Notes: a model not told the origin generated them from the letters alone. Counted from the first letter of the stretch, positions 1 to 42,941 are shown. The stretch is DNA of 64,000 nucleotides from Candidatus Binatota bacterium (GCA_012960245.1 DUBO01000051.1:60887-124886), one strand, 5' to 3'. Numbers and translations are program-made.

Positions 1-6
1 ACGGGC

Positions 7-3000
7 GTGATGATACGCCCGAACGATCCCGAGGGTGTGCACACGGTGCAGCGCGGTGCCGGTTGCTCCGTTGACGTCGGTGGCAATGTGATCAACAACT
101 GCAGCCCTGACGTCCGCTTTACCAACGATCCTTCCAACTACACCTTCAACCATCTAACGGGTGTACCCTGGTGCTTACCGAGTACCGTTGCTCGGGATTT
201 CACCGACGAGAACGGAAACGTAGTAACGGCTCAGTCCGACGTGTTTGGCGAGGGCGACGCTCTTTGCCCGGCCAGCAACAAGGACGACTTCGATCCCGCA
301 ACCACCAACTGGGTGGTCCCGGATTCGAGGCGCTTCGTGCCGTTGGCGGTGGGAGACCCCATAGGAGCAGATGGTAACTTCGAGACCGTTAACGGAGTAA
401 CGTTCTTCTCGGCCCACACCATAGTCATAGAGCTGTCCCCAACGACCCGGGATGACCCCAGCCAGCCCGACTACCTGCTGGTGGCTGAAGTCGGAGGCGA
501 CGTTTCTGGTTTTTCCAACGCACGCTTGAAGGGGATGGCCATAGGCATGGACAGTTTTGAGTCGCAGGTCGACGTGGCGGTGATCGACATCGATCCGGCG
601 ACCAACGAGGACAAGGCGCGCATTGTATTAAGCACGGTGGGTAATCCGCATACCGTTTGCATGGGAGTGAACCCGCTGCTGCCCCCCGGCGGCTTACCCG
701 GGGCCGTTCCCTGCTCCGTAGACAACGGCGGTAACATATTCAAGATCATTTTTGACGTTGATTTTGTTGTCGGGGTGGGCCCAAAACGTTCGTTTTGCAC
801 CAACCTGTTCAACGCCGGGCTGAGGGCCTCGGCAGTTTGCAGCCTGGGTGAGGAAGTCGCGACGTTCTTACCGATAACGCGCGAAATGATAATGGTCAGT
901 CGCCACCAGGCGGTTGTTAACGCAGCCGGCTCCGGCTCTCTCAACATAAACGGAAATCCGGCCGTCCACGGTGAGTATCTGTCGCCGCAAGGCGTAGGTC
1001 ATCCCGAGTTCGACGAAGTGACTTTGACTAGTGTAGGCACTGCCTTTCAGTTTGACGGTATTCCCTGGAACCTCGACCGGCGCCTGGGCCCGGGTGGCTG
1101 CGTGGACACCGACGGCGACGACGAGGTCGATTGCGAGAGCCTGGTTGACTTTCCGGTGGGTAGCTTTGGCCTGGATCCTTTTCCTTGGGATCCGTTGGAT
1201 CCCAGGGTGCGTGGTCCCCGCCTGGACGGCGACAATGTTGACTTACCGCTGGGGAGTGCACACCGCGTTCTGAGTCACTGGCCCCACAGTCCCGGCGCGG
1301 CCGCGGTGGTCGACGCCCAGGGGAATGTAATAACTCCAGCGATTGCGCCCGACCAGATTCCGTGGCCGCCTGCAACGGCTGCAGGACAAGAAGGGGGAGT
1401 TCTCGACTGTAGTGACGGTGACCCCTGCACGGTTGATTCCTGCGATGAGCATGAAGGCTGCTCGCATGTGCCCTCGACGGGTGACAATTGCGACGACGGA
1501 GACGCCTGCACATTGGGCGACGTCTGTAACGCCGGTGTGTGTGAATCCGGATCGCTTGATTGCACCGATAACACTTGCACGGCCACGTGCGACGACGGCA
1601 ACGACTGCACGGACGACGGTTGTGCTGCCGGTGCCTGCACGACGACCAACAACGTGGTGCTTTGCGACGATGGAGATGAGTGCACGACGGGCGACAGCTG
1701 CAACGGCGCCGGTGTTTGCACGGGAGGCGTTCCGCCGATCTGTGACGACGGCGATCCCTGCACGGCCGACAGCTGCGATTCGCTGCTCGGATGCGTTGAT
1801 TCCTTCGCGGCAAGCGGCACCTCCTGCGATGACGGCGACGCTTGCACGAGCAATGACCAGTGCGACGGGCTTGGTGACTGCCAGGGGGGCGGGGCTACCG
1901 GCTGCGACGATAGCAATCCCTGCACCGACGATTTCTGTAACTCCGCGGGAGGTTGCTTGAATGTATCCAACTCCGCGCAATGCTCAGACGGCGACGCGTG
2001 CACGGTGGACGACCTGTGTTTAGGCGGACTGTGTGTTTCCGGAGCCACGGACGACTGTGACGATGGTGACATCTGTACGGTTGATAGTTGCGATGCGGTT
2101 GGCGGTTGCGCCAACACTTTCGCTGGCGGGGCTTGCGACGATAACAACCCCTGCACCGACGATGTGTGCGACGCTTTAGGCGGTTGCGTGAGTACGGCCA
2201 ACGCGGCTTCTTGCGACGACGGTGACCCTTGCACTACTGGAGATAGTTGCCAGGCGGGCGCCTGCGTTGGCGGAGGTCCGACCGACTGCAGTGACGACAA
2301 CGTCTGCACCGACGACAGTTGCGGCGTGGGTGGCTGTGTACACACTGCCAACGTTGCCGCTTGTGACGACGGCAACGACTGCAACACGACCGACTTGTGC
2401 ACCAATGGGGTATGCGTTGGTAGCGGCACCCCGAATTGCGATGATTTGAACCTGTGTACTTTCGATTCCTGCGACCCGATCTTGGGTTGTACCAACGATC
2501 CCAACACGTCGGCCTGCGACGACGGCGACGCCTGCACGGAGAACGATACTTGCGCTAACAGCGGATGCTCGGGCTCGGTGGTTGCGCCTGCCTGCGGCAA
2601 CGGTTGCATAGAAGCCACAGAGACCTGCGGCGAGCCCGACATGGTGGGCTGCGTTTTGGGCGAGACTTGTGGCGCTGCGTGTACCTGCGAGGCCCAGAAC
2701 TGTGCCGTCCTGTTGATGACCGGCCCGCCGGCCCTGCCAGCTGCCGGCCAGCCGCTGGTGCTCTTCGTGAAGCTCAACGTAGGGACGATCCCCTTGGGTA
2801 GCTATGCTGTAGACCTGTCCTGGGATCCGGTTGTGTTGCAGCTCGACTCGGTAGCGGGTGGCAGTAATGCGCAATTCGGTGGAGCGCCTACCTGCAACAT
2901 AAACAACGCGGCCGGCACGGCCAGCTGTGTTGGTTTGAACGCCTCGGCGCTGAACCTCCCGTTTGGCGAGGTGCAAGTGGCTAACCTCAACATGACCGTT

Positions 3001-6000
3001 GTAGACGCGTCGGCCGGCGAGGCCACCGTGTCGGTGACCGCGGGCGTGATGAGCGATACCGCGGGCGACCCGCTTCCGGCTTGCAACGCGAGTGCTGACC
3101 TGACCGTGCTTAGTGGTTGCGGCGACGTTAACGGTGACAGCAACGTCAACATTGTCGATGCCCTGCTCACGGCCCAGTTCCAGGTCGGGCTGCGAACATG
3201 CAGCCAGATGGCCCGCTACGACGCCTGCGACATCTCGCCTGCGCCCACCGGCGACGGCTCATGTAACATTGCCGACGCGTTGAGGATGGCCCAGTGCAGT
3301 GTTGGCTTGATATCCTGCGACTTCGTCTGTTCGCCCCTGGTGTGCTCTGAACCAGCGGGCGCCATGATGATAGACCTCGGCGGCGAGACCGCGGATCTTC
3401 ACCTGCCCAGCGGGCAGGCGGAGGTCAGCATCTCGCTGCCCGGGGGTACCCCGAGCCCCGGGCAGGTGATAACAGGCGAGCTGGTCATCGACACCGGCTC
3501 GTCCCTGGGTGCGTACGGGATCGACATAATCTGCGATCCCGCACTCATGAGGATCGTGCCTCCGGTGGCGGGGGGCACCACGGGGGAGTTTTCGGGCTCG
3601 CCCGTGCAGAACGTTTCGGGCTGCAGCGCCAGCCTGAGTGGCTTCCAGTTCTCTAACCTCGCCGGTCCCAGCGGACTTGTGAGCGTGGCCAGCGTGCAGT
3701 TCGAAGTCCTGGCCTCGGCCACCCCGGGCGGCACCAGCCTGGTTGACCTGGCTACCACAGTGATGGTGGATACTAGCGGAAACCCTATTTTAGCCACCGA
3801 TCTTGATAGCACGGTAACTATCGGTGGCGGCTGCGGAAACGGAACACTTGAACTCGGCGAGCAGTGCGACGACGACAACAATGTCAACGGCGATTGCTGC
3901 TCGGCCTCCTGTAACTTCGAAGTCGGATCATGCTTCGACGGCGACTCCTGCACCACCGGCGATACCTGCCAATCAGGTTCCTGCGTGGCTGGAGCAACCC
4001 TTGATTGCGACGACAATAATCTTTGTACCGACGATAGCTGTGATTCTTTGAGCGGCTGCGTGAACGTGGCCAACACGGTTTCCTGCGACGATGGCGATGC
4101 CTGCACCGAGAGCGACGTGTGCTCGGGTGGAAGCTGCCAGTCCGGCGCGGCGGCCGACTGTAGCGACGGTAATATCTGCACCGTTGACTCCTGCAACTCT
4201 GCTTCAGGCTGCCAGAATCAGCCTTCTAACGCGGCCTGCGACGATGAAAATGCTTGCACCGACGACAGCTGCGCGGCCAATGCCTGCAGCAGCACGCCCA
4301 ACTCGGCCTCCTGTGACGACGGTGACGCTTGCACCACTACTGACACCTGCGCGGCGGGTAGCTGCTCGGGTTCGGCCGTAGACTGCGACGACGCCAACTT
4401 GTGCACTACCGATTCCTGTGATGCTGCCAGCGGTTGTGCGTACGCGGCCAACTCGCTCGCCTGCGACGACGGGGTCAACTGTACCACCGGCGATACCTGC
4501 TCTGCTGGAATCTGCCAGGCTGGTGCTCCGGTAGTCTGTAACGACGGTGACGTCTGTACCGACGACCAGTGCAACGAGGCCGACGGAACCTGCTCCAGTT
4601 TTGCTAACACGGGGCCAGCCTGCGATGACGGCGATGCCTGCACCACGGGCGACGCCTGCTTCGGCGGCAACTGTGTGGGTGGCGCGGCGCCGGACTGCGG
4701 CGACGGCAACGTTTGCACTGATGACGTTTGTAACTCGGCCAGCGGTTGCTCCAACCCGGCCAACACGGTTGCCTGCAACGACGGTGACGCCTGCACCACC
4801 GCTGACACCTGTTCTGCGGGTTCCTGCGTGGGCGGAGCGGCTCCCGATTGCAACGACAGTGATCTTTGCACTGCCGACAGCTGCGACTCGGGCTCGGGCT
4901 GCGTGAACACGGATATATCGGCTGACTGTGGCGACGCTAACGTCTGCACTACCGACAGCTGCGATGCGATCCAGGGTTGCATAAACGCGCCCAACACGGT
5001 GGCTTGTGACGACGGTGATGCCTGCACACAGGTAGACAGCTGCGATGGCGCTGGCGCCTGCGCTGGATCTGACCCGGTGCTGTGTACGGCCAGTGACCAG
5101 TGCCACGACGCGGGCAGCTGTGCCCCGGCCAGTGGCCAGTGCAGTGACCCTGCTTCGGCTGACGGTACGCCCTGTGATGATGGCAACGCCTGCACGACCA
5201 ACGACAGCTGCCAGTCCGGCACCTGTGTCGGCGGCGCGGCACCGAACTGTGACGACACTAACGTCTGCACTACCGACAGCTGCGATGCAGCCAGCGGTTG
5301 CCAGCACGTGCCGGTGGCGCTGTCTTGCGATGACGGCGATGCGTGCACGGTTGCCGATTCGTGCAGCGGCGGCGTCTGCTCGGGTACGACTCGTGATTGC
5401 AACGACAGCAACGGCTGCACAAACGACAGTTGCGATCCGGCCTCGGGTTGCGCCAGCGTTGACAACACAGCGCCATGTGATGACGGAAACGCCTGCACCA
5501 CGAGTGACACCTGCGCCGGTAGTTTCTGCGTTGGTGGAGTAGCTCCTGAATGCAACGACGGCAATGGTTGCACCACCGACAGTTGCGACACAGCGTCGGG
5601 CTGCCTTTACTTGGATAACTCGCTCGCCTGTGATGACGGTAACGCCTGCACGGACAACGACAGCTGCTCAAGTGGGCAGTGCCAGGGCGGCGGAGCTGCG
5701 AACTGCGACGACTCCAACTCTTGCACGGTTGATCTGTGCGACTCGGCTACCGGTTGCCAGCACTTCAACGTAGCCATCGCGTGCGATGACGGCAACGCCT
5801 GCACGACCGACGACCAGTGCAGTAGCGGTGCTTGCGTAGGCGGCGCCCCGCCCAACTGCAACGATTCAAACGTTTGCACTGACGATAGCTGCGATGCCGG
5901 CCTGGGCTGCGTAAACACAAACAACACGGCCCAGTGCTCAGACGGCGACGCTTGCACCACCAGCGATATCTGTTCGGCTGGCAATTGCGGCGGTACCGAC

Positions 6001-6996
6001 ACGTCGGCGAGCGATTGTGATGACAGTAATGTGTGCACCACTGACAGCTGCAACGCGGTTTCTGGTTGCGCCAACGTGGTCAACGCGGTGGCTTGCGACG
6101 ACGGAGACACTTGCACGACGGTTGATCTCTGTGTCGATGGAGCCTGCGTGGGTACGGTTCCGCCCGATTGCGACGACACCAACGGTTGCACGGACGATAC
6201 CTGTGACAGTGCTACCGGTTGCGTGAGCACCGACAACACGGCCTCCTGCGAGGACGGCAACGCCTGCACAAGGGACGATACCTGCCAGGCGGGATCCTGT
6301 GTGGGCGGTGCGGCGCCCGACTGCGACGACGATAACGAGTGCACGGAGGATACCTGTGACGCTGCCTCGGGCTGCGCGCACGGTAACAACACCAGTAGTT
6401 GCGACGACGGCGATTCCACCTCGGTGGGTGACCAGTGCTTAGCGGGCAGCTGCGTGTCGGGTAACTTCGGCTGCCCGGCAGCCCCGGCGCCCGACTGCAC
6501 CCAGCCTTACTTCGAGCGTAAGTCCAAGCTGCTGCTTAAGAACAACAGCCTGGACAGCAAGGACAAGTTGCTCTGGAAATGGGCCAAAGGTGGTGCCACG
6601 ACCACGGCAGATATGGGCGACCCATCGGCCACTACCGAGCACGCACTGTGCATCTGGGACGAGGTAGGCGGTACGCCCGCCCTGGTCATGGAAAACCACG
6701 TCCTGCCGGGCAACGGTTGGCAAGTATCGGCTTCGGGCATTCAGTACAAGGACCGCGTAGGCGCTCCGGACGGCGTGGCTAAGCTGAAGATGAAGGCCGG
6801 GCCCGACGGCAAGGCCAAGATCCTGATCAAGGCCAAGGGCGCCGCCACGGGTCTTGCGGCCATGCCGCTGTCGCTGGACGACAAGCTTACAGTGCAGTTG
6901 GTGAACAACTCGGGCGGATGCTGGCAGTCGGATTTCGCTGCGCCGACCTCGCGTAATAACCCGGCATTGTTCAAGGGAATTTCTTCCTTCAGGTGA
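7..6996 (+). CDS. Giant secreted modular protein, probably 5'-truncated at the window edge. It has an unknown N-domain, CTDC-type Cys-rich repeat block 1, cohesin-like domain 1, a dockerin-like module, cohesin-like domain 2, CTDC repeat block 2 (about 35 units), and a conserved ~170-aa C-terminal domain shared with the next gene.
   Basis: The 2329-aa ORF is open to nt 1 (GTG at 7, no upstream stop, no signal peptide), so it is likely partial. Tandem 24-25-aa repeats of the form CDDGxACTxxDxC...GC fit the Dictyostelium CTDC (PF00526-like) spacing. One unit at ~3826 is CGNGxxExGEQCDDDNNVNGDCC, which is myxo disulfide-repeat-like. A DVNGDSNVNIVDALL dockerin Ca-loop lies at 3124. LSWDPVVLQLDSVAGG and GIDIICDPALMRIVPPVAGG are cohesin-like beta-sandwich motifs. 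The C-terminal KLLWKWAKG...CWQSDF block aligns with the C-terminus of the 7263..12509 protein. Confidence 0.8.
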   Translation: MMIRPNDPEGVHTVQRGAGCSVDVGGNVINNCSPDVRFTNDPSNYTFNHLTGVPWCLPSTVARDFTDENGNVVTAQSDVFGEGDALCPASNKDDFDPATTNWVVPDSRRFVPLAVGDPIGADGNFETVNGVTFFSAHTIVIELSPTTRDDPSQPDYLLVAEVGGDVSGFSNARLKGMAIGMDSFESQVDVAVIDIDPATNEDKARIVLSTVGNPHTVCMGVNPLLPPGGLPGAVPCSVDNGGNIFKIIFDVDFVVGVGPKRSFCTNLFNAGLRASAVCSLGEEVATFLPITREMIMVSRHQAVVNAAGSGSLNINGNPAVHGEYLSPQGVGHPEFDEVTLTSVGTAFQFDGIPWNLDRRLGPGGCVDTDGDDEVDCESLVDFPVGSFGLDPFPWDPLDPRVRGPRLDGDNVDLPLGSAHRVLSHWPHSPGAAAVVDAQGNVITPAIAPDQIPWPPATAAGQEGGVLDCSDGDPCTVDSCDEHEGCSHVPSTGDNCDDGDACTLGDVCNAGVCESGSLDCTDNTCTATCDDGNDCTDDGCAAGACTTTNNVVLCDDGDECTTGDSCNGAGVCTGGVPPICDDGDPCTADSCDSLLGCVDSFAASGTSCDDGDACTSNDQCDGLGDCQGGGATGCDDSNPCTDDFCNSAGGCLNVSNSAQCSDGDACTVDDLCLGGLCVSGATDDCDDGDICTVDSCDAVGGCANTFAGGACDDNNPCTDDVCDALGGCVSTANAASCDDGDPCTTGDSCQAGACVGGGPTDCSDDNVCTDDSCGVGGCVHTANVAACDDGNDCNTTDLCTNGVCVGSGTPNCDDLNLCTFDSCDPILGCTNDPNTSACDDGDACTENDTCANSGCSGSVVAPACGNGCIEATETCGEPDMVGCVLGETCGAACTCEAQNCAVLLMTGPPALPAAGQPLVLFVKLNVGTIPLGSYAVDLSWDPVVLQLDSVAGGSNAQFGGAPTCNINNAAGTASCVGLNASALNLPFGEVQVANLNMTVVDASAGEATVSVTAGVMSDTAGDPLPACNASADLTVLSGCGDVNGDSNVNIVDALLTAQFQVGLRTCSQMARYDACDISPAPTGDGSCNIADALRMAQCSVGLISCDFVCSPLVCSEPAGAMMIDLGGETADLHLPSGQAEVSISLPGGTPSPGQVITGELVIDTGSSLGAYGIDIICDPALMRIVPPVAGGTTGEFSGSPVQNVSGCSASLSGFQFSNLAGPSGLVSVASVQFEVLASATPGGTSLVDLATTVMVDTSGNPILATDLDSTVTIGGGCGNGTLELGEQCDDDNNVNGDCCSASCNFEVGSCFDGDSCTTGDTCQSGSCVAGATLDCDDNNLCTDDSCDSLSGCVNVANTVSCDDGDACTESDVCSGGSCQSGAAADCSDGNICTVDSCNSASGCQNQPSNAACDDENACTDDSCAANACSSTPNSASCDDGDACTTTDTCAAGSCSGSAVDCDDANLCTTDSCDAASGCAYAANSLACDDGVNCTTGDTCSAGICQAGAPVVCNDGDVCTDDQCNEADGTCSSFANTGPACDDGDACTTGDACFGGNCVGGAAPDCGDGNVCTDDVCNSASGCSNPANTVACNDGDACTTADTCSAGSCVGGAAPDCNDSDLCTADSCDSGSGCVNTDISADCGDANVCTTDSCDAIQGCINAPNTVACDDGDACTQVDSCDGAGACAGSDPVLCTASDQCHDAGSCAPASGQCSDPASADGTPCDDGNACTTNDSCQSGTCVGGAAPNCDDTNVCTTDSCDAASGCQHVPVALSCDDGDACTVADSCSGGVCSGTTRDCNDSNGCTNDSCDPASGCASVDNTAPCDDGNACTTSDTCAGSFCVGGVAPECNDGNGCTTDSCDTASGCLYLDNSLACDDGNACTDNDSCSSGQCQGGGAANCDDSNSCTVDLCDSATGCQHFNVAIACDDGNACTTDDQCSSGACVGGAPPNCNDSNVCTDDSCDAGLGCVNTNNTAQCSDGDACTTSDICSAGNCGGTDTSASDCDDSNVCTTDSCNAVSGCANVVNAVACDDGDTCTTVDLCVDGACVGTVPPDCDDTNGCTDDTCDSATGCVSTDNTASCEDGNACTRDDTCQAGSCVGGAAPDCDDDNECTEDTCDAASGCAHGNNTSSCDDGDSTSVGDQCLAGSCVSGNFGCPAAPAPDCTQPYFERKSKLLLKNNSLDSKDKLLWKWAKGGATTTADMGDPSATTEHALCIWDEVGGTPALVMENHVLPGNGWQVSASGIQYKDRVGAPDGVAKLKMKAGPDGKAKILIKAKGAATGLAAMPLSLDDKLTVQLVNNSGGCWQSDFAAPTSRNNPALFKGISSFR
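1400..2575 (+). repeat. CTDC-type Cys-rich coding tandem repeat block 1 (about 15 units of ~72-75 nt) inside the giant protein gene
   Basis: Read directly from the translation: a repeating CxDGDxCTxxDxC / CDDxNxCTxDSCDxxxGC pattern. Confidence 0.8.
3826..6475 (+). repeat. CTDC-type Cys-rich coding tandem repeat block 2 (about 35 units, organised as a ~150-nt super-repeat of two alternating subtypes)
   Basis: The motif ...CDDGDACTTxDTCxAGSCVGGAAPDCDDxNxCTTDSCDAASGC... is reiterated with highly similar nucleotide sequence. Confidence 0.85.
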
Positions 6997-13042: not shown

Positions 13043-13067
13043 CCAGCAGAAGCAGCCGAAGTCCGCG

Positions 13068-19000: not shown

Positions 19001-19706
19001 TATCAACTACCACTGGTTCGCCGGCTATACGTGGCACGGATTTTCCGAGCCTGAGGAGCTGGGTCCGGGCAACCTGCGCTCCTACGGCGACTTCCTGGTC
19101 GATGCTCGGCAGGGCTTGCTCGGCGCGTTGGTAATAGAAGAAGCCGGTGCCAGCTGGACCGACACCGTGACCGGCACGGCGGCTTCGTCGGGAACAGCGG
19201 TAGACGTGACCACGGCCTCTGGTGAAACCTTTCGCGAGTTCGTAGTTCTCTACCAGGAAGACCTGGACTTGTTCACGGGCCAGGGAAGGATTCCCGACGC
19301 CAAGGTCGATCAGGCCGAGAAGGCGTTCAATTACCGAACCGAGAATTTCTGGGCGCGGCTGGGCGTTCCTACTTCCGTAGACTTGAATGACGTGGCGTTT
19401 CCCTCCGATTTTTTCAGCGGCCCTATCGAGACACCTTTGTTCAGGGCAGCCGACGGGCAGAAGGTTCGTTTCCACGTACTGCAGCCCTCCGGCGGTCCCC
19501 TGCAGCACACCTTCCTCGTGCAGGGGCACGACTATCCGGACAACCGCCAACCGATGGCGGGCACCGGGGGGGCGAGCATTATAGCCCCCTTCGTGGCCCG
19601 TACCATGGACCTGGAAGGCGGCGCGCGCGCCGGCACATGGCTCTATCACGACGGCACGGGGTACGGTCGGGCGGGTGGCCTCTGGGGCCGGCTGGAAGTC
19701 GACTGA
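13068..19706 (+). CDS. Giant secreted fusion protein: N-terminal Cys domain, about 45 myxo-type disulfide-rich repeats (13590-15290) and a large multi-unit multicopper oxidase (15290-19706)
   Basis: Signal peptide-like N-terminus. Repeats of the form CGDGxVxxGEECDDGNxxxxDxCLxxC (TIGR02232-like spacing). Two cupredoxin domain-1-like segments (LVLRANEGDVLQVHFTNL, LVLRANSGDCITVSLTNHM), each followed by GLxGALxVEP. An HIFHLHAHQW (HxHxH) motif at 16355-16385 and a type-1 Cu motif HCHLYPHFAQGM at 16531-16566. Additional HIHLV, THDH and TWHGF His-rich motifs. Confidence 0.8.
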   Translation: MNNSQPFYLPVFKTIRTALLCSVLMLLVPLTAVGAEQQQAGDRFPSNPLGACSTKLAAGGDKLFKKAARALQRCQKADMSTSCLLNRPASVAGELSGYATKARRSMAGKCSRINYDLAGYPSTCPGFGDACDFTVAGWDVTGEKNDMLDCLLCMYDAAARRSLELQVVVPRCGDGMDNRLDEICDDGNDDSNDACLGDCRAASCGDGFVWAGQESCDNGDANSDTEADACRSDCTPAVCGDGTVDSGEECDDSGESASCDSDCSLAVCGDGTVNASAGETCDDTGESASCNSDCTVASCGDGTTNGTAGESCDDGNGDNTDACLNDCSPASCGDGFTWAGSEDCDDGNADNNDSCLDSCTAATCGDGFAWAGTEECDDGNADNGDSCLDSCVTATCGDGFLFSGSEQCDDGAANSDTAPDTCRSDCELPSCGDGVADSAEQCDDGNADDNDSCLGSCVDASCGDGHTWAGIEACDAAGYSASCNLDCSVSVCGDGKANPAAGEACDAAGESAVCDLDCSLASCGDGTMNTTAGEACDAAGESTTCDLDCSLASCGDGTTNATAGETCDTEGESASCNADCSTAACGDGKVNSSAGEQCDAAGESDLCDGDCTVAACGDGTTNATAGEACDDGNNSNGDGCLDSCATASCGDGFVFAGEEACDDGNSSNADACLADCAVASCGDGFVFVGQEACDDGNSDNGDACLDSCETASCGDGFLFVGGEECDDGNSSDTDSCSAACDSQRVISAGVVALDQVLTYNRWGSHQAAGMIFALRRDVVDMAGNPIGEGGVPGQVMLRPGKRPRPLVLRANEGDVLQVHFTNLLAPARPNAKGTTTRLASMMVNGTRVLGNTHDPVVTGLEGIAPGQSTDYSWKAGHEGTKLFYSLAGPAGGGGDGGQLSLGLFGALNVEPEGSSWYRSQVTAAELATARSQAEAPALLNYDAVDIAGVPVLRMLDDAGELVHSDLNAIIAYDQAADNVQSTSEATFREFSVIFHDEIELTQGYPQLDNDVLKPVSDSFAINYGSEGLGSRLLANRLGEGPAANCLECPYEEFFLESAVSGDPALLNVFEDDPSNVHHSYINDNVKFRNLHAGPRETHIFHLHAHQWLANAGEGIDDNSVYLDSQAISPMSNFTYEIQYGGAGNRNKVVGDSIFHCHLYPHFAQGMWELWRAHDVLEDGTRRLMDGELGPGTNPLTGVTVGGTPIPALVPMPDYAMAPDPSYGPNALPGYPFYMAQVAGHRAPQAPLDVASDGGLPRHVFTDGGQRSTGAGAASFDFHVDVQVANIQVLPQEGTALEQAAMAFHASPGVTTTTPEGDAAFFELNGLPSTAGAPYAEPCPPLCGSAQQGEYQAACMDGCTGKPWDPECSLRCEDCTTAHRTYHVSYIELDLLANAAGWHDPQGRINVLDSDVSLYEGQTTTADPFFFRANSGECVTFKHTNRAPKEFDLDDFQVRTPADVVGQHIHLVKFDVTSSDGSGNGWNYEDGTYSAEAIAEWTAASNALGGSATSGYDAAGNPVNVWGDGATSGVPTTLTADGGFQTTTQRWWADPLLNKHGQDRSIRTVFTHDHFFPSTGQQHGFYNALTIEPAGSQWLTPDLTDDLSLPLDPARGVGTQAYIIAADSKTCTVSGEAVAVEPLPCNSDADCPEEEWCMNMDHREFMMAVADLALLYTPLGVPIGAPAQPEAISSKGGTDVVNYRNEPFAGRGGPHPDADLDTLNSGNGVPSGAFSSWVNGDPFTEIFKAREGERMQVRLIQGAQQAQHSFNLHGGLWPEAIDDSGSPMVQGQPIGISEHFECDMGVAPPVTGGGVADYLYHFGANDHLNDGSWGLIRVFADGLSFDASDSELRSAQLAAAAAGERNDCLEDSPARLFEVEAWRAADLLPGGRLVYNQREDIYDPNARIFLLAEDRAALAAGTKAVEPLVLRANSGDCITVSLTNHMPDTEVSMHPQRVSYDVRYSDGANVGLNFLQTAMPGETINYHWFAGYTWHGFSEPEELGPGNLRSYGDFLVDARQGLLGALVIEEAGASWTDTVTGTAASSGTAVDVTTASGETFREFVVLYQEDLDLFTGQGRIPDAKVDQAEKAFNYRTENFWARLGVPTSVDLNDVAFPSDFFSGPIETPLFRAADGQKVRFHVLQPSGGPLQHTFLVQGHDYPDNRQPMAGTGGASIIAPFVARTMDLEGGARAGTWLYHDGTGYGRAGGLWGRLEVD
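13590..15290 (+). repeat. Myxo-type disulfide-rich repeat array (~108-nt period), coding
   Basis: CGDGxxNxxAGExCDxxGESxxCxxDCxxAxCGDG is reiterated about 45 times. Confidence 0.85.
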
Positions 19707-19756
19707 CGGCTATAGCCCGGCAACTGGCCCGGTCGCTGGCGGATTAATTTGTTCTG

Positions 19757-19807
19757 CCCCCCTAACGGGGGGTACGGGCCGCTGTTTCCCCGTTTGGGGG
19801 CTTGTTG
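19757..19807 (+). terminator. Two GC hairpins (CCCCCC-taac-GGGGGG; CCCC-gttt-GGGGG) followed by a CTTGTTG tail; candidate intrinsic terminator after the oxidase gene
   Basis: Inverted repeats read directly from the sequence. The T-tract is weak. Confidence 0.35.
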
Positions 19808-19847
19808 AACTCCCCCGACAGGGTAACTTTTTATAAGGGGTTACAGC

Positions 19848-21746
19848 TTGCGGGGGTTTCCTAAATACGAAAGAAAGGTGGGATTGTCGGTGGCGATCCT
19901 GTTGCCGCTGGCGATGGTTTTCGGCTGCCCGGTGCCGGTGGATGCCGCGGATTCCAAGCCTGCGGGCGTTGAATTCTCGGTACACAACCTGGATTCCAAG
20001 GCGGGTCAGGCAATCAGGGCGGGCGGGGACCTTCTGGTCAAGTTCAGACTGTCTGATCCCGATTCTGGCTTCGGACTGTCGCAGTTGCACCCGGCTGCCT
20101 GGCTCAGCCCGCGCGAGAAGGGCGCTCCCGCGCCGTCGCAGCAGGAGTGCGAAAACCTGATACGCGGCATGGGGCAGTTCGGTGTCACGCACGCCGACGA
20201 CGATCTCAACGGTTACTACATCCTCACCCTCAACGCTGACAATTCAGTCTCTATTCTCAACCCCATGGTCAGCCTGAACACTTCCAACCAGAAGGCCCAC
20301 ATTCTCCTGGACGGCGAGGCGCACGCATGGGATTTTGACCCCAACACGGCGCTGGCCTGGGTGACCTTGCCCGACGATAACAAGGTGGCCGTTGTTGACG
20401 TCAAGGGCCGACGAGTCGCTGCCTACCTGGCAGTGGGCAACGCGCCGCGGTCGATAGAAGTACAACCCGACGGTCGTTTTGTGTGGGTGGGCAACGACGA
20501 TTCGGGTACCGTCAGCGTGTTGGCCCCAAGCGGCCAAGGACAACTTCGTTCGATCGAAGTGGGGCGAGGCCCGATAGATTTTGCCTTCGACGAACAGGGG
20601 CGCTACGTGATCGTGTCAGCGGGGGGTGCCGGCCGCGTGTCGGTGATCGATACGGGGAGCATGAAAGTCGTATCTTCTCTCGAAGTGGGCGAAGGCTCAC
20701 TTCAGGTCGCCTGGGCAGAACTGGCCGGCGCTTTTTACCTGCTCAACCCTTCGCGCAACACGGTTACGGTCGCTTACCCCCGCGAGGGCCGGGCTGCCGT
20801 GGAGATCGATGTCGCCGAGGGCGCCACGACGATTGAAGCCGATCCGCAGGGACGCTGGGTATTCGTGATCAACCCCGAGGCGCGCGCGGTTGACATCATC
20901 GATACCGCAGCTGCGAGGCTGTCGCGCAGGGTAGCGCTCGAGGAAAAACCCAGCCACGTTCTTTTCAGCTCGATCTTCGCCTACGTCTACCACGCCGACA
21001 GTTCCAACCTGTCGCTGGTAAAGCTCTCTGCGCTTGCGGATGCTGAAGCTGCACCGGTGCTGATCATCCCCATGGGAGTTGAGCGACCCGAGGGAAGAAT
21101 GGTGCGCCCGGGCCTGTTGCCCATGGACATTCTGCCCGATGAGGGCGGCGCCGTGGTGGCCAACCCGGTCGAGAAGGTCATCTATTTTTACACCGACGGA
21201 ATGATGTCTCCGATGGGTTCGTTCAAGACATGGGCGTCGAACCCGCTGGGCGTGATTCTCTACGACCGCTCGCTGCGGGAGCGCGGCAACTCGGGCGTCT
21301 ACGAGACGGTTACCCGCCTGGACGAACCCGGGGTGTACGATGTTCCCTTCGTGCTGGGCAGCCCACGGGTAGTGACCTGTTTTGAGTTCGAGGTCGCGGG
21401 AGAGCCCGGGCACGGGGAAGCCGTGAAGCCGTTGTTCCGCGGACTGTTCGTGGGCGAGGATCTCGCCCCGGGTGACGAGGTGACCCTGCGCTACCAGGTG
21501 GTCGACGGTCGCGATGGCCGTCCCCTGACCGGTCTCGACGACCTGAGATTGATAACCTTTCGCGCGGGCGAGAACTGGAGCGCGAGGTCCTGGACCAAGG
21601 AAGTAGAAGACGGCGTGTACGAGGCGGGTGTCACCTTTCCGCGCGGCGGCCGTTACCTGGTGCAGGTGGAGGCACGCTCGCTGGGCATCGGTTTCGGCGA
21701 TGCTGGAAGGGACTACGCCGACGTGTCGCAGGGAGCGACGAGATGA
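19848..21746 (+). CDS. Secreted, possibly lipoprotein, YVTN-family beta-propeller protein with an Ig-like C-terminal domain
   Basis: Signal peptide with an FGC motif. Repeated segments of the form YVIVSAGGAGRVSVIDTGSMKVVSSLEVGEG are typical of 40-residue YVTN beta-propeller repeats. The stop overlaps the next start (ATGA). Confidence 0.7.
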   Translation: MRGFPKYERKVGLSVAILLPLAMVFGCPVPVDAADSKPAGVEFSVHNLDSKAGQAIRAGGDLLVKFRLSDPDSGFGLSQLHPAAWLSPREKGAPAPSQQECENLIRGMGQFGVTHADDDLNGYYILTLNADNSVSILNPMVSLNTSNQKAHILLDGEAHAWDFDPNTALAWVTLPDDNKVAVVDVKGRRVAAYLAVGNAPRSIEVQPDGRFVWVGNDDSGTVSVLAPSGQGQLRSIEVGRGPIDFAFDEQGRYVIVSAGGAGRVSVIDTGSMKVVSSLEVGEGSLQVAWAELAGAFYLLNPSRNTVTVAYPREGRAAVEIDVAEGATTIEADPQGRWVFVINPEARAVDIIDTAAARLSRRVALEEKPSHVLFSSIFAYVYHADSSNLSLVKLSALADAEAAPVLIIPMGVERPEGRMVRPGLLPMDILPDEGGAVVANPVEKVIYFYTDGMMSPMGSFKTWASNPLGVILYDRSLRERGNSGVYETVTRLDEPGVYDVPFVLGSPRVVTCFEFEVAGEPGHGEAVKPLFRGLFVGEDLAPGDEVTLRYQVVDGRDGRPLTGLDDLRLITFRAGENWSARSWTKEVEDGVYEAGVTFPRGGRYLVQVEARSLGIGFGDAGRDYADVSQGATR

Positions 21747-22381
21747 AACAAGGCTTGCTCACAGTGCTGCTATCGGCAGCGATGCTTGCTTGCCCGTTCT
21801 TGATGCGGGCGGCAACGGCCGCGGGCGTGAGCGCGGGGGGAAACGACGCTGGCGACGTCAGGCTTATCGACGTGCCGCTGCTCGACCAGGATGGCAAGCG
21901 CATGATGCTGGTCAGTGACCTGGTCGGGGAGAAGATCGTGGTAATGAACTTCATTTTTACTACCTGCCCGTCGGTGTGCCCCATGCAGTCTGCAATTTTT
22001 GCAGGCCTGCAGAAGGAGCTGGGTGATCGCCTGGGCAACGAGGTCAAGCTGTTGAGCCTGAGCATAGACCCGGTCACCGATGTGCCTGCGAGGCTGGCGG
22101 AAACCGCCGCTCGCTACGGGGCGCGAGAGGGCTGGACCTGGCTCACGGGCGAGAAGGCCGACGTCGACAGGGCCCTGGTCGGCCTGGGTGCGTACTCGAG
22201 CGAGGTTGAATCGCACCCGGCGATGATCCTGGTGGGAGACGGCAGCACGGGCGATTGGACACGCTTCTATGGTTTTCCGCGTCCGGTAGACGTGCTGGCC
22301 CGAGTGGACGCGCTCGTCGCGGCACGGATCGCGGGGCCGGGAGCGGTTGCCGCGGAGCCGGCAGAAGAAAACCAGCGATGA
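21743..22381 (+). CDS. SCO1/SenC family copper chaperone (thioredoxin fold, CxxxC)
   Basis: VVMNFIFTTCPSVCP...LLSLSIDPVTDVPARL...GWTWLTG is the SCO1/SenC signature. ATGA overlap with the upstream gene. Confidence 0.8.
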   Translation: MKQGLLTVLLSAAMLACPFLMRAATAAGVSAGGNDAGDVRLIDVPLLDQDGKRMMLVSDLVGEKIVVMNFIFTTCPSVCPMQSAIFAGLQKELGDRLGNEVKLLSLSIDPVTDVPARLAETAARYGAREGWTWLTGEKADVDRALVGLGAYSSEVESHPAMILVGDGSTGDWTRFYGFPRPVDVLARVDALVAARIAGPGAVAAEPAEENQR

Positions 22382-23043
22382 AATGCTCGAGCTCTAAAAC
22401 TTCGACGATTAGTTTCGCAACGGTGAGCGTGACGGCCCTGGTGTGCTTTCTGCTGCTCGGTGTAACCCGTTCCGCCGCGGCCGCCGCCGCCGAGACTCAA
22501 GCTACTACCACCCCCGTTTCTGTCACTGCCGCCCGCGACGGAGACGAGGCCGCGCGAAGCTGGTTCACCGAATCCATCTTGCTTGACCAACGCGGTCGAG
22601 AGCTGAAGTTCTACAGCGATGTTCTCAAGGACCAGGTAGTGGTCGTCAACTTCATCTTTACCCGTTGCCCCGGCACTTGCCCGGTGCAGACGGCCAAGAT
22701 GTCGGAACTCTACAAGGAACTCGGTGGAGAAATGGGGCGGACGGTGCGCTTCGTATCGATTTCGGTAGACCCCGACAACGACACACCGGCGAAGTTGCTT
22801 GAATTTGCAGACCGCTACAAGGCTGGTGACGGCTGGTTTTTTCTTACGGGTGAGCAAAAAAGTCTCGACCAGGTAACGCGCAGGCTCGGTGCTCACAATA
22901 GTCTTGCCGAGGCGCACTCGCCCTTGTTCCTGCTCGGAAATGTCAGCCGCGAACACTGGGTCAAAATGCGCCCGAGCGCTTCGGTGGCAACGCTGGCGGG
23001 TGAAGTACGAAAACTGCTCGCGGTCGATAAAGAAGATGGCTGA
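22378..23043 (+). CDS. Second SCO1/SenC family copper chaperone paralog
   Basis: Internal ATG at 22378 (MKCSSS..., signal-like TM segment) overlapping the upstream stop (ATGA). VVVNFIFTRCPGTCP...FVSISVDPDNDTPAKL...GWFFLTG. Confidence 0.8.
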   Translation: MKCSSSKTSTISFATVSVTALVCFLLLGVTRSAAAAAAETQATTTPVSVTAARDGDEAARSWFTESILLDQRGRELKFYSDVLKDQVVVVNFIFTRCPGTCPVQTAKMSELYKELGGEMGRTVRFVSISVDPDNDTPAKLLEFADRYKAGDGWFFLTGEQKSLDQVTRRLGAHNSLAEAHSPLFLLGNVSREHWVKMRPSASVATLAGEVRKLLAVDKEDG

Positions 23044-24673
23044 CAGGATGACGGCGGCACTGCCAGCGCGGTTACTCGTCGTGGCGGCGCTGGGTGGGGT
23101 GCTGGTTGCCTTGGTTGCCGATCCGGCAGTGGCTGGCTGGGGCGAACAGGAGCAGCGCGGCAAGTCGGTTTACGAGCAGGGCAGGGCCACGGGCCAGGTG
23201 AAGGCACTGCTGGCGGGGCCGGGCCTCGAAGTCGATGCGGCCCAGTTTCCCTGCGTAAACTGTCACGGCCACGACGGCGCGGGTGTCATTGAAGGTGGCG
23301 TCACCACTGCCGACATCAGGCCGTCGCGCTTAGCGTTCGCGGCCGATGCCACCAGGGACTTCGGCAGGCAGCGGCCGGCCTACGACAACGAGGCGCTGGC
23401 AATGGCGATCAGGTCGGGTCTCGACCCAGGTGGCAACAGCCTTCACCCGGCCATGCCTCGCTACCGTATCAACGACGACGACTTGGCCGACCTGCTGGCC
23501 TACATGCGCCACCTGGGGCGAGAGCCTGTAGCAGGGGTAGCAGAAGATGCGGTGAGGGTCGCCGCGTTGCTGCCTTCCGCTGGACCGCTGGCCGCCCCCG
23601 CCCGCGAGGTTGAGCGTGTGCTCGCGGCCTTCGAAGAATACACCAACGAACAGGGCGGGGCCTACGGTCGGCGCTTGCTGCTGGAGCTCAAGCACTACGA
23701 TCCGTCGGTGGATGCCGGTGGCGTTGCCGCGGTGGACGAGTTGCTGGCGGGCGAACGCCCGTTCTGCCTCTTGTCGAGCATGGGCCTGGGGGCCGCTGCG
23801 TTGGCCACGCTTGAACAAGCCGGCGTTCCGCTGGTCGCGCCGCTGGCGGTACCTGCCAGTGACGGCTACGGCGCCGCCCGAAACACCTTTTTTGTTTTTA
23901 CCTCCGTGGCCGACCAGGCCAGGGTATTGGTCGATCATCTGGTGGCCGAGCTACCCGGCCTGGGCGGGGGCGCGGTGCTGCTGCACGACTCTGGTCCCGA
24001 GGGGCTGGCGGGCAAGCTGGGTGTAGAAAGCCAACTGTCCGGCTACGACCAGACGCTGTCGGCGAGTATCCAACTGGCAGCTGCGGGAGGCGTTGAGTCT
24101 GTCGTGGCGGAGCTCGTCGCGGCCGGAACAGCGGGCCAACGGCCCTCGGCTGTATTTTTCTTTGCCGATGGAGAGCGAGCGGCAGAGTTCCTGCGCCTGG
24201 CCGCTGCCGAAGACTGGCACCCGCTGCTGTTGGGACCCGCCGAAAGGCTGTCCCCCGGCCTGGCCGGCCTGCCCCCGGCTTTGCTCGCCGGACTGCGCCT
24301 GGTTTCGCCTGCCGGGGTGCCGGACCTAGACGCCGGCCGTAGCAGGGAGTTTCTCGCGGTGATGGAAAGAGAAGGAATTGCGGGGAGCTACCGCGCGTTT
24401 CAAATCTCGGCCTGGGCTGGAGGCTTGCTGCTGAGAGAAGGGTTGCGGAGATCTGGCCGTCGTCTTACCACACCTCGTTTCATGGCATCGCTCACCGGCC
24501 TGCGCGGGTTCGATACCGGCTTGCTGGCGCCGTTGTCATTTGACGAAAACAGCAGGGTGGGTGTGGCCGGCGCCACGGTGCTGCGGTTTTCAACGGCCGG
24601 CCCGGGCTTGTCGGTTGCCCGTAGATGGCGCGAACCCCTGGCGGCATCCGCCGTTGTAGAGCCTCAACTGTAA
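23036..24673 (+). CDS. Periplasmic mono-heme cytochrome c domain fused to a type-I periplasmic binding protein (Leu/Ile/Val-binding-like) fold
   Basis: Start MADRMTAALPARLLVVAALGG overlaps the upstream stop by 8 nt. A CVNCH heme motif is followed by a Met-containing loop. The remaining ~450 aa has a PBP-like alternating alpha/beta pattern. Confidence 0.65.
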   Translation: MADRMTAALPARLLVVAALGGVLVALVADPAVAGWGEQEQRGKSVYEQGRATGQVKALLAGPGLEVDAAQFPCVNCHGHDGAGVIEGGVTTADIRPSRLAFAADATRDFGRQRPAYDNEALAMAIRSGLDPGGNSLHPAMPRYRINDDDLADLLAYMRHLGREPVAGVAEDAVRVAALLPSAGPLAAPAREVERVLAAFEEYTNEQGGAYGRRLLLELKHYDPSVDAGGVAAVDELLAGERPFCLLSSMGLGAAALATLEQAGVPLVAPLAVPASDGYGAARNTFFVFTSVADQARVLVDHLVAELPGLGGGAVLLHDSGPEGLAGKLGVESQLSGYDQTLSASIQLAAAGGVESVVAELVAAGTAGQRPSAVFFFADGERAAEFLRLAAAEDWHPLLLGPAERLSPGLAGLPPALLAGLRLVSPAGVPDLDAGRSREFLAVMEREGIAGSYRAFQISAWAGGLLLREGLRRSGRRLTTPRFMASLTGLRGFDTGLLAPLSFDENSRVGVAGATVLRFSTAGPGLSVARRWREPLAASAVVEPQL

Positions 24674-24763
24674 AACACCTCAATATTCACTGGGCTAAGC
24701 TGGGCTGTACGGCCCTTGTGGTGTGCAGGCGGTATCAACACAAAGATATCTGCAGTGTTTATC

Positions 24764-24769
24764 TATAAT
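24764..24769 (+). promoter_or_regulatory. Exact TATAAT -10-like hexamer in an AT-rich island upstream of the protease gene
   Basis: Sequence tttatcTATAATtcgg lies in an otherwise ~68% GC context. The -35 is not convincing. Confidence 0.3.
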
Positions 24770-24876
24770 TCGGATTTTATCACTATGCGGCGCTTCCCTA
24801 GCTTCGGGCTAGCTGTTATCTGCCCGTCTCCCCTGCAGTCTTTTGTCTGGAAGACAACGGGGGGCTGGAGTGTCAG

Positions 24877-26523
24877 GTGGTTCCCATTCGGTACAGGATC
24901 AGGTCGGCCGCGATTGCGTGCGCGCTCGTGTTGGCCATTGTGTTTACTGCCGCTTTGGCTACCGGGGCTGCCAGCGGGAGGATAGTCAACGGTACCGCGA
25001 CTTTTGACTATCCCGAGGTGGGAATGCTTCTGCACGGCAGCAACCCGTGGAACTCGGGCATGACCTGCAGCGGCACGCTTATCGGTTGTCGTAGTTTCCT
25101 GACCGCGGCCCACTGCGTCTGCCCTTGGTCCGGTGGGCAGTGCCAGGGAGCGGGCGCACCTTACAAGGGCCTGTACTCAGTTTACCTGCAGGGCTCAGGC
25201 GTGTACCGGGCTGAATCGGTGCTGGTGAACCCGGGCTACAGCTACCCTGTTGGCGATCTCGCGGTGGTGACCCTGGATCGCCCGGTAGAAGGAATTGTGC
25301 CCGCCGCGATGGTCGGCGTCACACCGGCCGTGGGCAGCGCGGCAGTATTGGTAGGCTATGGTCGCACCGACGGCGCGGCCTCTGATTTTGGCATCAAGCG
25401 GATGGGGGACGTCACCACGGTTGGCTGCGAATCGGGCTACGACAACGGCAACATCTGCTGGAACTTTGACGGCAGCACCTCGAATACTTGTCACGGCGAT
25501 TCCGGTGGCCCGCTGTTCGTTGACCAGGGAGATGGCCCGAGGCTGGCGGGCGTGACCTCGGGTGGTACCCGCTCCGACTGCGGTCCCGGTGATCACAGCT
25601 TTGACACCAGCGTCGCCGCCTGGGCTGACTGGGTGAACAGCATTGTCGATGAAGCCGCCGGCTGCGAAGGAGCCGAACAACAGGCAGCCGTGATTTTTGA
25701 CGCATCGGCCAACGTGGGCTTTGCTGATGCCCTCGCGGACAAGAAGGACCAGGACCACCACCAGTTTACCGTACCGGCTGGTTCGTCCGCGGTGGCAGCA
25801 ACCCTCAATTCCGTCGATGACAGTCACAGCGACCTGGACCTTTACCTGCGCGCAGGGGCGCCGGCAACCGAGGCTGACTTCGATTGCCGCAGTATTGGAG
25901 GTGGCCCGTTCGGCCACTGCTCGGTCACTGAACCCCTCGCTGGTGACTGGTACGCGATGGTTGCCTCTGCCAAGGGCGCAGCCGAGTACCAACTGCTGGC
26001 AGTGTCGCTGCCCAGTCCGGCATCGTCCTGCGGCGATGGGCTGCGCGAATACGGAGAAGAGTGTGACCAGGCCGACGACCAGGCCTGCCCAGGGCAGTGT
26101 GACTCGTCCTGTGCCTGTCCGCAGGCTTGTTCGGCTAATCTCTTCGAAGTTCGCAAGTTAGAGTCCCGTGGAGGGAGGCTTGCCCTCAAGGGTCTGCTCC
26201 TGGATTACTTTGGCGATTTTACCAGTGCAGATCCCAGGCTCAATCTATCTCTCGCCGAGGTTGGTGCCCCGGAGGGCCAGGGCTTGTTTATTGCCAGCGA
26301 CGATACCGGTTGGAACCGCTCGCGGCCGGGGCGCGGACGTTACACCTGGAAGGGAAGCGCCTACGGTCTACCCGCCAAGCTCAAACTAGTGGACCGGAGC
26401 CGTAGGAAGTCGGTCTGGAAAATCAGCGCTCGCTTGAGCCTTGACGGTGGCGATGTGGTCCCCGCGGCCAGCCTGCGACTGGACTTTGCCGGACTCTGCG
26501 CTCTTTCGAACGGCTCGCGCTGA
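24877..26523 (+). CDS. Secreted trypsin-like (S1 family) serine protease with a pre-peptidase C-terminal-like domain and a C-terminal myxo-type Cys repeat
   Basis: GTG start with a signal peptide. IVNG...TAAHCV (catalytic His) and GDSGGPLF (catalytic Ser ~25497). A PPC-like segment DHHQFTVPAGS...DLDLYLR. A C-terminal CGDGLREYGEECDQADDQACPGQCDSSCAC. Confidence 0.85.
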   Translation: MVPIRYRIRSAAIACALVLAIVFTAALATGAASGRIVNGTATFDYPEVGMLLHGSNPWNSGMTCSGTLIGCRSFLTAAHCVCPWSGGQCQGAGAPYKGLYSVYLQGSGVYRAESVLVNPGYSYPVGDLAVVTLDRPVEGIVPAAMVGVTPAVGSAAVLVGYGRTDGAASDFGIKRMGDVTTVGCESGYDNGNICWNFDGSTSNTCHGDSGGPLFVDQGDGPRLAGVTSGGTRSDCGPGDHSFDTSVAAWADWVNSIVDEAAGCEGAEQQAAVIFDASANVGFADALADKKDQDHHQFTVPAGSSAVAATLNSVDDSHSDLDLYLRAGAPATEADFDCRSIGGGPFGHCSVTEPLAGDWYAMVASAKGAAEYQLLAVSLPSPASSCGDGLREYGEECDQADDQACPGQCDSSCACPQACSANLFEVRKLESRGGRLALKGLLLDYFGDFTSADPRLNLSLAEVGAPEGQGLFIASDDTGWNRSRPGRGRYTWKGSAYGLPAKLKLVDRSRRKSVWKISARLSLDGGDVVPAASLRLDFAGLCALSNGSR

Positions 26524-42915: not shown

Positions 42916-42941
42916 CGTCGGTTTACCCGGCCGCCCCTTAG

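Follow-up and report, generated by a model that had tools for sequence, protein, structure and literature searches.

Gene layout of the locus

The stretch of DNA analysed here, 64,000 nucleotides from a Candidatus Binatota bacterium (GCA_012960245.1, DUBO01000051.1:60887-124886), is referred to as the window, and its positions 1-26523 hold nine consecutive genes on the + strand, all confirmed as open reading frames. They encode a large multicopper oxidase of the MnxG/MofA type, a long di-heme enzyme, a secreted protein with a conserved head domain (here termed P1N), and several smaller proteins. An earlier note on this DNA had described the region as a cell-surface oxidative machine in which a cohesin/dockerin scaffold protein accompanies a heme peroxidase and a multicopper oxidase. 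Every domain named in that note was detected in Pfam and NCBIfam scans of the window proteins, and signal peptides were found on the secreted proteins of the locus, in agreement with the proposed secretion.

Protein 1 (1..6996, from its open reading frame and translation) is cut at its 5' end by the window; identical contigs (L090 and L091) give its full length of 2534 amino acids and its signal peptide. It is followed, after a gap of 266 nucleotides, by protein 2 (7263..12509; 1748 amino acids), which comprises a signal peptide, a long di-heme domain of the MauG/MbnH type, a stalk of CTDC repeats and a C-terminal tail. The start codon of the next gene (12506..13042), encoding a small secreted Cys-rich protein of 177 amino acids, overlaps the protein 2 stop codon (ATGA), and 25 nucleotides separate this gene from that of protein 3 (13068..19706; 2212 amino acids). 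Protein 3 consists of an N-domain, to which the small protein is paralogous (BLASTP), 18 CGDG-type repeats and the large multicopper oxidase.

Downstream lie genes for a YVTN beta-propeller protein with a C-terminal YtkA-like domain (19890..21746; TIGR02276, 66 bits; YtkA, 24 bits), two SCO1/SenC copper chaperones (21743..22381 and 22378..23043; PF02630, 62 and 72 bits, respectively) and a fusion of a cytochrome c (CVNCH motif) with a periplasmic binding protein (23048..24673; Peripla_BP_6, 92 bits; Cytochrom_C, 29 bits). Stop and start codons overlap between the propeller and the first SCO1 gene and between the two SCO1 genes, and lie 4 nucleotides apart at the junction with the cytochrome c fusion. 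The last gene encodes a secreted trypsin-like protease with a PPC domain (24877..26523; Trypsin, 72 bits; PPC, 40 bits). CGDG-type and CTDC repeats were absent from the other 37 kb of the window by regular-expression count. The CGDG repeat is common to proteins 1 and 3 and the protease, as the earlier note stated, but only protein 3 carries a series of 18; the other two have one copy each.

The same sequence was found, identical, in several metagenome-assembled genomes labelled by their sources as Candidatus Binatota or Deltaproteobacteria and in the Joint Genome Institute sample GBIDBA, a label that we take to denote the Guaymas Basin plume. Enzymatic oxidation of Mn(II) is fast in the Guaymas Basin plume.

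The multicopper oxidase and its operon

The oxidase region of protein 3 (15303..19703; ~1470 amino acids) is of the MofA/PpMnxG type. Pfam Cu-oxidase domains are recognised in protein 3, and the NF041487 model of MnxG matches the region in six stretches, with 669 bits and an E value of 1.2e-200, in keeping with the earlier assignment to a family of known and putative Mn(II) oxidases. The copper ligands (H1101/1103/1105, H1155-C1156-H1157..H1161..M1166, H1463/1465 and H1567/1569) make up the complete set HxHxH, HCHxxxHxxxxM, HxH and HxH, which is 100% conserved in a 21-sequence alignment; the canonical T1 copper site (HCH..H..M) recognised earlier is present in all 21 family members. The region has at least 4138 homologs, with 40-50% identity over 97% of the query, in proteins of 1500-1800 amino acids. 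Sphaerotilus, Ideonella, Nitrospira and Minicystis are among the genera represented, and the source records of some homologs carry the name “manganese oxidase” or “manganese oxidation”. Sphaerotilus and Ideonella provide the nearest homologs from cultured organisms (43-44% identity over 97% of the query).

The oxidase is preceded by its stalk of 18 CGDG...CDDGN repeats (DUF4215/TIGR02232; 13581..15303; TIGR02232, 107 bits; DUF4215, 95 bits). The relationship between the N-domain of protein 3 and the small coupled gene, also noted earlier, was recovered by BLASTP (28% identity, E 3e-14); the small protein had no family match in the Pfam and NCBIfam scans. A multicopper oxidase beside a small accessory protein, here the 177-residue paralog, resembles the Bacillus Mnx complex, in which MnxG is accompanied by the small MnxE and MnxF, although this is an analogy only and no homology is claimed. 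The small protein here differs in being Cys-rich and secreted, and the NF041487 profile has 1894 positions, a length that presumably fits a Pseudomonas-type MnxG.

The mnxG operon of Pseudomonas putida GB-1 contains, in order, mnxG, a YVTN propeller gene, two SCO1/SenC genes, a gene for a substrate-binding protein with cytochrome c, and a SurA-domain gene (PMC11409713, Table 4). The gene order of positions 13068-24673 is that of the first five of these genes. The conservation of this order was assessed in 38 MnxG-type loci, one genome per species, spanning Acidobacteriota, Myxococcota, Nitrospira, Planctomycetota, and Alpha- and Betaproteobacteria. The succession of oxidase, propeller, one or two SCO1 genes and cytochrome c/binding-protein gene is kept in Pyrinomonadaceae, Sorangium, Anaeromyxobacter, Nitrospira, Planctomycetota, Paracoccus, Mesorhizobium and Variovorax; the propeller directly follows the oxidase in 24 of the 38 loci, and the cytochrome c/binding-protein gene is found in 19. 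Judged by homology and gene order, the core at 13068-24673 is of a known kind, a syntenic homolog of MnxG/MofA-type operons. The claim that the combination had not been described is wrong for two thirds of the region, where the core repeats a published and widespread gene order.

The likeness to the P. putida operon extends to a homologous oxidase (E 1e-200) with conserved copper ligands. The Binatota locus differs in the ~745-residue N-terminal extension of the oxidase (the small Cys-rich domain and the 18 CGDG repeats), in a sixth gene that encodes a trypsin/PPC protease rather than a SurA-domain protein, and in the giant P1N and di-heme genes that precede the operon. The Leptothrix mofA-mofB-mofC and Geobacter ompB clusters likewise combine a large secreted multicopper oxidase with a cytochrome of the c type, MofC-like in the ompB cluster, and an SCO1 copper chaperone (He et al., PMC5566968). 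Unlike the Leptothrix and Geobacter clusters, the locus has no FKBP-type mofB, its propeller and second SCO1 gene follow the Pseudomonas layout, and its stalk fusions are absent there.

The protease was not found beside the homologous oxidases of the 38 loci. A promoter and terminator scan of the window gave counts close to shuffle expectation, and a terminator-like hairpin at the protease stop codon is a weak hint that transcription ends at 26523. Because the gene is not conserved beside homologous oxidases and is followed by this hairpin, the membership of the protease in the system, assumed in the earlier note, is doubtful. Directly after it, and preceded by a promoter-like site (26567-26596), lies an FkbH/HAD-IIIC gene (26628-28487; TIGR01686, 303 bits) that is probably transcribed separately.

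The oxidase would oxidise a metal outside the cell, most probably Mn(II), and pass the electrons to O2; Fe(II) and organic compounds are less likely substrates. An oxidase acting on iron or on organic matter instead, either in OmpB-like Fe redox reactions or as a phenol/humic oxidase, is conceivable since MofA homologs include Geobacter OmpB and genes of Fe(II) oxidisers with the same cytochrome c and SCO1 neighbours (PMC5566968). Homologs of P1N in Sideroxyarcus and Nitrospirae, and the score of the oxidase under the MnxG equivalog cut-off, point the same way. Nevertheless, we regard this substrate range as very unlikely: the genetically supported members with the exact operon layout are Mn(II) oxidases, and the GBIDBA sample, if its label denotes the Guaymas Basin, is from a plume with fast enzymatic Mn(II) oxidation. 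Mn(II) oxidation by the locus is plausible.

The di-heme enzyme and the P1N family

Residues encoded at 7263..9977 form the di-heme domain of protein 2 (CCP_MauG PF03150, 68 bits; TIGR04039, 77 bits), as the earlier note had recognised. Its two CxxCH motifs (C95-H99 and C465-H469) and the Trp of an FWDGR motif (W217) are invariant in the family alignment, as is Tyr820 among the long di-heme enzymes. Tyr820 aligns without gaps to residue 294 of MauG and to the Tyr of 6e1c, whereas the canonical peroxidase 1iqc has Met at this position. We take Tyr294 of MauG to be the axial ligand that separates MauG-type protein oxidisers from H2O2-reducing peroxidases. A His-Tyr heme like that of MauG would make oxidation of a protein partner likelier than H2O2 detoxification. 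The analogy with the heme peroxidase MopA drawn in the earlier note fails because no animal-heme-peroxidase domain was found in the ten window proteins examined (Pfam, E <= 0.01), and the alignment of Tyr820 with MauG Tyr294 indicates an enzyme of the MauG/MbnH type.

From these motifs, protein 2 is assigned as a long MauG/MbnH-type di-heme enzyme. It shares with MauG, MbnH and CorB/SACCP the two CxxCH motifs, the FWDGR Trp and the Tyr at the MauG 294 position, and it resembles those systems in being encoded beside a conserved secreted protein in a copper-related context. However, its domain is about twice as long as those of MauG and MbnH, and its 76.9 bits against the MbnH model TIGR04039 lie far below the family threshold (cut-off, 362.85 bits). 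The head of protein 2 belongs to a family with at least 7669 matches, made up of long (650-900 amino acids) secreted di-heme proteins, many of them fused to surface or sorting modules. A Cys-containing insertion of ~190 amino acids lies between the second heme motif and a YDxGFYNI motif (window 8790-9360; residues ~510-700); among the aligned relatives it is partly present in P0126 only.

Protein 1 begins with P1N, a conserved secreted domain of ~640 amino acids, of which the last ~470 are encoded in the window (1..1410). P1N had no family match in the Pfam and NCBIfam scans, and in the Protein Data Bank (PDB) it had no sequence or fold match except OB-like subdomains. The family has at least 305 homologs with 40-46% identity and many invariant residues, which are mainly Asp, Asn, Arg, Gly and Pro; few are His or Met, and one is the Trp of the sequence GIPWNLDRRL. 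Its members occur in Nitrospirae, Methylococcaceae, Sideroxyarcus, Pyrinomonadaceae, Planctomycetota and Chloroflexota, and are fused to Big_9/cadherin, FN3, TSP3 plus dockerin, PKD or CTDC modules. MauG-like enzymes are encoded beside their copper-binding substrates MopE, CorA and MbnP, and are believed to produce the kynurenine ligand of these proteins (PMC3912023). In contrast to these partners, among which preMADH may also be counted, the P1N neighbour of protein 2 has no sequence or fold relation to MbnP, MopE or CorA.

The P1N alignment retrieved 80 loci from metagenome contigs; two close Binatia orthologs were set aside, leaving 78. Controls were 42 loci (724 kb) that matched by the CGDG repeat only in an 80-locus scan of a genome collection. 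A di-heme gene lies within 10 kb of P1N in 22 of the 78 metagenomic loci, including 13 of 25 with at least 3 kb on both flanks and 9 of 15 with at least 6 kb on both, and the di-heme gene shares the strand of P1N in 24/24 cases. A multicopper oxidase gene is present at 15/78 P1N loci and an SCO1 gene at 14/78, whereas di-heme, oxidase and SCO1 genes are each absent from the controls (0/42). Two of the oxidases beside P1N are of the MnxG type, one at 48% identity; elsewhere, those of ~900 amino acids score best on CueO/PhsA models.

Several P1N loci are co-linear, with di-heme, P1N, oxidase and SCO1/cytochrome c genes in succession. Six loci (L118, L123, L124, L140, L156 and L163) contain a four-gene co-linear module of a long di-heme enzyme, P1N, a ~900-residue CueO/PhsA-like multicopper oxidase and an SCO1-cytochrome c fusion. 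P1N is fused to the long di-heme domain in one protein (P0533, at L093/L094), followed by genes for a ~900-residue multicopper oxidase and an SCO1-cytochrome c protein. The module also occurs in a cultured methanotroph, Methylomonas sp. LL1 (L095; CP064653, 130142-152337), where a pair of P1N paralogs precedes a di-heme enzyme that bears TSP3 and dockerin modules, and an oxidase gene and an SCO1-cytochrome c gene lie 3 kb from them. On a second Binatia contig, a P1N gene adjoins a gene with di-heme and CTDC modules.

The converse search, beside MnxG-type oxidases, found no P1N by tblastn with the truncated head from the window, but with the full head and a hidden Markov model (HMM), divergent P1N-like genes were detected at 5 of the 38 MnxG loci and at none of the 42 controls. 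In Variovorax (L040:20954-22525) and Roseicella (L033:20816-22369) they lie in or beside the MnxG operon and occupy the sixth operon position, where P. putida GB-1 has the gene annotated as “SurA domain”. Both directly follow the cytochrome c/binding-protein gene, and the Variovorax gene matches P1N in hhalign with a probability of 99.7% (E 8.5e-27). The others are found in Nitrospira (L015:660-2237), in Nitrosomonas (L026:5226-6971) and at L035:6763-9906.

The presence of P1N beside both proteins in many unrelated lineages suggests that the heme enzyme and the copper oxidase are probably functionally linked, as the earlier note had supposed on other grounds. Proteins 1 and 2 are assigned to the oxidase operon because P1N, di-heme, oxidase and SCO1 genes recur together elsewhere, and not because of the decorations that the proteins share. 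The expectation that the genes are co-conserved in related genomes was borne out for the link of the di-heme enzyme, P1N and the oxidase across lineages, but not for the protease.

P1N could instead be the surface copper-binding protein of a system for copper acquisition or homeostasis, matured by the MauG-like enzyme as is thought for MopE/SACCP, CorA/CorB and MbnP/MbnH, its role then being to supply or buffer copper alongside the SCO1 proteins and a multicopper oxidase resembling cuprous oxidases. Known MauG-like enzymes do adjoin copper-binding substrates (PMC3912023), all partners at this locus are copper proteins or chaperones, the ~900-residue oxidases beside P1N elsewhere fit CueO/PhsA models best, and some Binatota encode copper membrane monooxygenases (PMC8262859). 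We nevertheless consider a copper-handling system improbable, given that P1N is unlike MopE, CorA and MbnP and has few invariant His or Met residues, and that the oxidase in the window is of the MnxG/MofA type, not CueO.

Repeat stalks, tails and cohesin-dockerin modules

In this lineage the three heads, P1N, the di-heme domain and the multicopper oxidase, are carried on long disulfide-rich repeat stalks. That of protein 2 is built of Dicty_CTDC repeats (10029..11973; PF00526, 134 bits; 24 units by regular expression). Protein 1 has 46 CTDC-type units over residues 470-2108 (regular-expression count; PF00526, 212 bits over the whole protein), divided into a first cysteine-rich block (1411..2640) and a second that follows a single CGDG-type repeat (3868..6460).

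Proteins 1 and 2 end in related tails of ~170 amino acids (6469..6993, HMM E 1e-50, and 11982..12506; 41% identity, E 1e-55). The tail matched no Pfam or NCBIfam model in the scans made, and its AlphaFold 2 model, a beta-sandwich predicted with high confidence (pLDDT 95.6), has no close relative in the PDB. An exhaustive search found it in 5156 cluster representatives (2828 at E <= 1e-10), and it lies at the extreme C terminus in 142 of 150 proteins. The heads joined to it are unrelated, among them PD40, BNR, lactonase propeller and disintegrin-like domains (Pfam scans of 10 proteins). In the tail family (P0285-P0434; alignment of 30 sequences), W29, W31, G34, C56, W85 and C153 (protein 2 tail numbering) are invariant, and the domain is usually preceded by a Cys-containing linker. 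The C terminus of the protease was considered as a further copy and rejected (BLASTP E 0.45); the tail HMM matched only proteins 1 and 2 in the window.

With more than 5000 clusters carrying it behind heads of unrelated kinds, the tail is a generic, promiscuous module of secreted proteins and provides no evidence linking proteins 1 and 2. The CTDC repeats and the tail are indeed common to both proteins, as had been noted, but the tail loses its value as a sign of mix-and-match assembly. Its wide distribution, together with the frequency of CTDC and DUF4215 repeats in Binatia and Myxococcota, would fit proteins 1 and 2 being unrelated surface proteins that share lineage-typical repeats and a tail and adjoin the oxidase operon with no common function, as would the 266-nucleotide gap before protein 2 and the absence of P1N and the di-heme gene from most MnxG loci. 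Mere adjacency is nonetheless an unlikely explanation: P1N, di-heme, oxidase and SCO1 genes occur together in lineages without these decorations, including one fusion and the co-linear four-gene module, the control loci have none of this, and the small gene is coupled, or almost coupled, to the genes on either side of it, those of proteins 2 and 3.

Between its two CTDC blocks, protein 1 contains a cohesin-like module (2701..3084; Pfam Cohesin, 26.4 bits over the full sequence, 21.2 bits when the segment is scored alone), a dockerin-like module with two Ca-loop/helix repeats (3103..3318) and a second cohesin-like module (3388..3822; 16.7 bits, profile positions 4-136 of 139), against a Pfam cut-off of 24.1 bits for Cohesin. 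Scored alone, the dockerin segment reaches 26.1 bits with Dockerin_1 (cut-off, 22.9 bits), compared with 17.8 bits within the complete protein, and both Ca-binding repeats are visible in the sequence. The cohesin-like modules are 32% identical to each other; a profile made from both matched only cohesins in PDB (best E 3e-4), and all 8 PDB matches of the dockerin segment were dockerins (best E 0.0065). On these specific matches, the cohesin-dockerin-cohesin block reported earlier appears to be real but weak.

Just upstream of window position 1 lies a fourth gene for a CTDC-repeat protein, truncated in every assembly (L091:205-1593, where it contains a run of N; L090:675-1745). The protein ends with a dockerin-like module (Dockerin_1, 20.2 bits), and dockerins were located at this locus only here and in protein 1 itself. 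If the cohesins of protein 1 bind anything, these two proteins are the best candidate partners, and such pairing would cross-link repeat proteins into a matrix and not dock enzymes. The arrangement resembles cellulosomal and non-cellulosomal cohesin-dockerin systems in its one dockerin-like and two cohesin-like modules, which match only dockerins and cohesins in PDB, and in the dockerin at the end of a neighbouring repeat protein. It differs from cellulosomes in that cohesins and dockerin are on one polypeptide, module scores are at or under the Pfam cut-offs and the catalytic proteins have no dockerins; furthermore, the host has outer-membrane-type genes (TonB-dependent receptor and RND efflux) and not the make-up of a cellulolytic Gram-positive bacterium.

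The earlier proposal that protein 1 is a scaffold docking a peroxidase and the copper oxidase, with direct oxidation of Mn(II) or phenolics by both enzymes at the cell surface, draws on the presence of these modules, on the secretion and adjacency of the proteins, on the Mn-oxidase type of the copper enzyme and on the dockerin-ended protein upstream. This proposal has, in our judgement, little probability. Neither enzyme carries a dockerin, nor does the protease; the heme enzyme is MauG/MbnH-type with a predicted His-Tyr heme and not MopA-type; the tail is generic; and the part of protein 1 conserved across lineages is its own ~640-residue P1N head and not the cohesins, so that a mere scaffold is not what protein 1 appears to be.

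The explanation that we favour, with slightly more confidence than doubt, is that positions 1-24673 represent a widespread extracytoplasmic copper-oxidase system that has been elaborated in one lineage, that of an uncultured marine Candidatus Binatota bacterium. The SCO1 proteins would load copper into the oxidase for its proposed metal oxidation, and the di-heme enzyme would oxidise or modify a protein partner, for which the co-conserved P1N is the best candidate. The modules added in this lineage are the cohesin-dockerin-cohesin block, the generic beta-sandwich tail and the duplicated small N-domain. The stalks and cohesin-dockerin contacts, including those with the upstream dockerin-ended repeat protein, may hold the proteins together outside the cell.

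Several findings weigh against such an elaborated Mn(II)-oxidising system. The oxidase lies far below the NF041487 equivalog cut-off (669 versus 3100 bits), which indicates a relative and not an ortholog-level match, and the MofA-type family includes Geobacter OmpB, which is required for the reduction of Fe(III) oxides (PMC5566968). No di-heme enzyme or oxidase is nearby in ~40-50% of the P1N loci with long flanks, and among the 38 MnxG loci only five have a P1N-like gene and only one has a long di-heme enzyme. Co-transcription of the genes for proteins 1 and 2 across the gap between them is unproven. P1N was tried as a counterpart of MopE, CorA or MbnP and has no similarity to any of them in sequence or fold; finally, the Pfam scan found no dockerin on protein 2, protein 3 or the protease.

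A more far-reaching version, which is tentative and on present indications doubtful, is that P1N and the long MauG-type di-heme enzyme are an enzyme-substrate pair in which a cofactor or cross-link would be installed in P1N, the pair being a widespread accessory of multicopper oxidase/SCO1 systems. In the marine Binatota the pair and the oxidase system, on disulfide-rich stalks, would be tied by cohesin-dockerin contacts into an extracellular Mn-oxidising assembly, possibly a plume Mn(II) oxidase.

New here are the stalk-fused architecture, the occurrence of the operon in Binatota and the conserved P1N/di-heme accessory pair. No description of this pair was found in the literature searched, and a search combining Binatia, manganese and multicopper oxidase found nothing. 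The genomic survey of Binatota mentions neither manganese nor multicopper oxidases (PMC8262859).

The remainder of the window contains, on the - strand, the TonB-dependent receptor (31389-33566), a radical SAM protein with DUF3641 (36853-37854) and, 13 kb from the oxidase cluster, the RND efflux system (39844-45354), which consists of a pump named CzcA by one source, a membrane-fusion protein and an outer-membrane factor; a link of this system to metal handling is possible. A Tad/Flp pilus assembly set on the + strand (53049-59715: RcpC/CpaB, secretin, ParA-like ATPase, CpaF-type ATPase and TadB/C-type protein) is followed by uvrB (59776-61779, +).

The cycling of trace metals and carbon is shaped by bacteria that oxidise Mn(II), and to our knowledge the enzymes of deep-sea Mn(II) oxidation, including that in hydrothermal plumes, are largely unassigned. 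The locus is a testable candidate for plume Mn(II) oxidation in an uncultured phylum. In addition, the conserved set of long di-heme enzyme, P1N, multicopper oxidase and SCO1/cytochrome c recurs across phyla, and its cultured carriers, Methylomonas sp. LL1 and Variovorax, allow experiments. Maturation of c-type cytochromes is needed for Mn oxidation in Pseudomonas (PMC11409713), a need that the conserved set of di-heme enzyme, P1N and multicopper oxidase may explain. The stalk, cohesin/dockerin and tail decorations represent large-scale grafting of modules onto secreted redox enzymes in one lineage.

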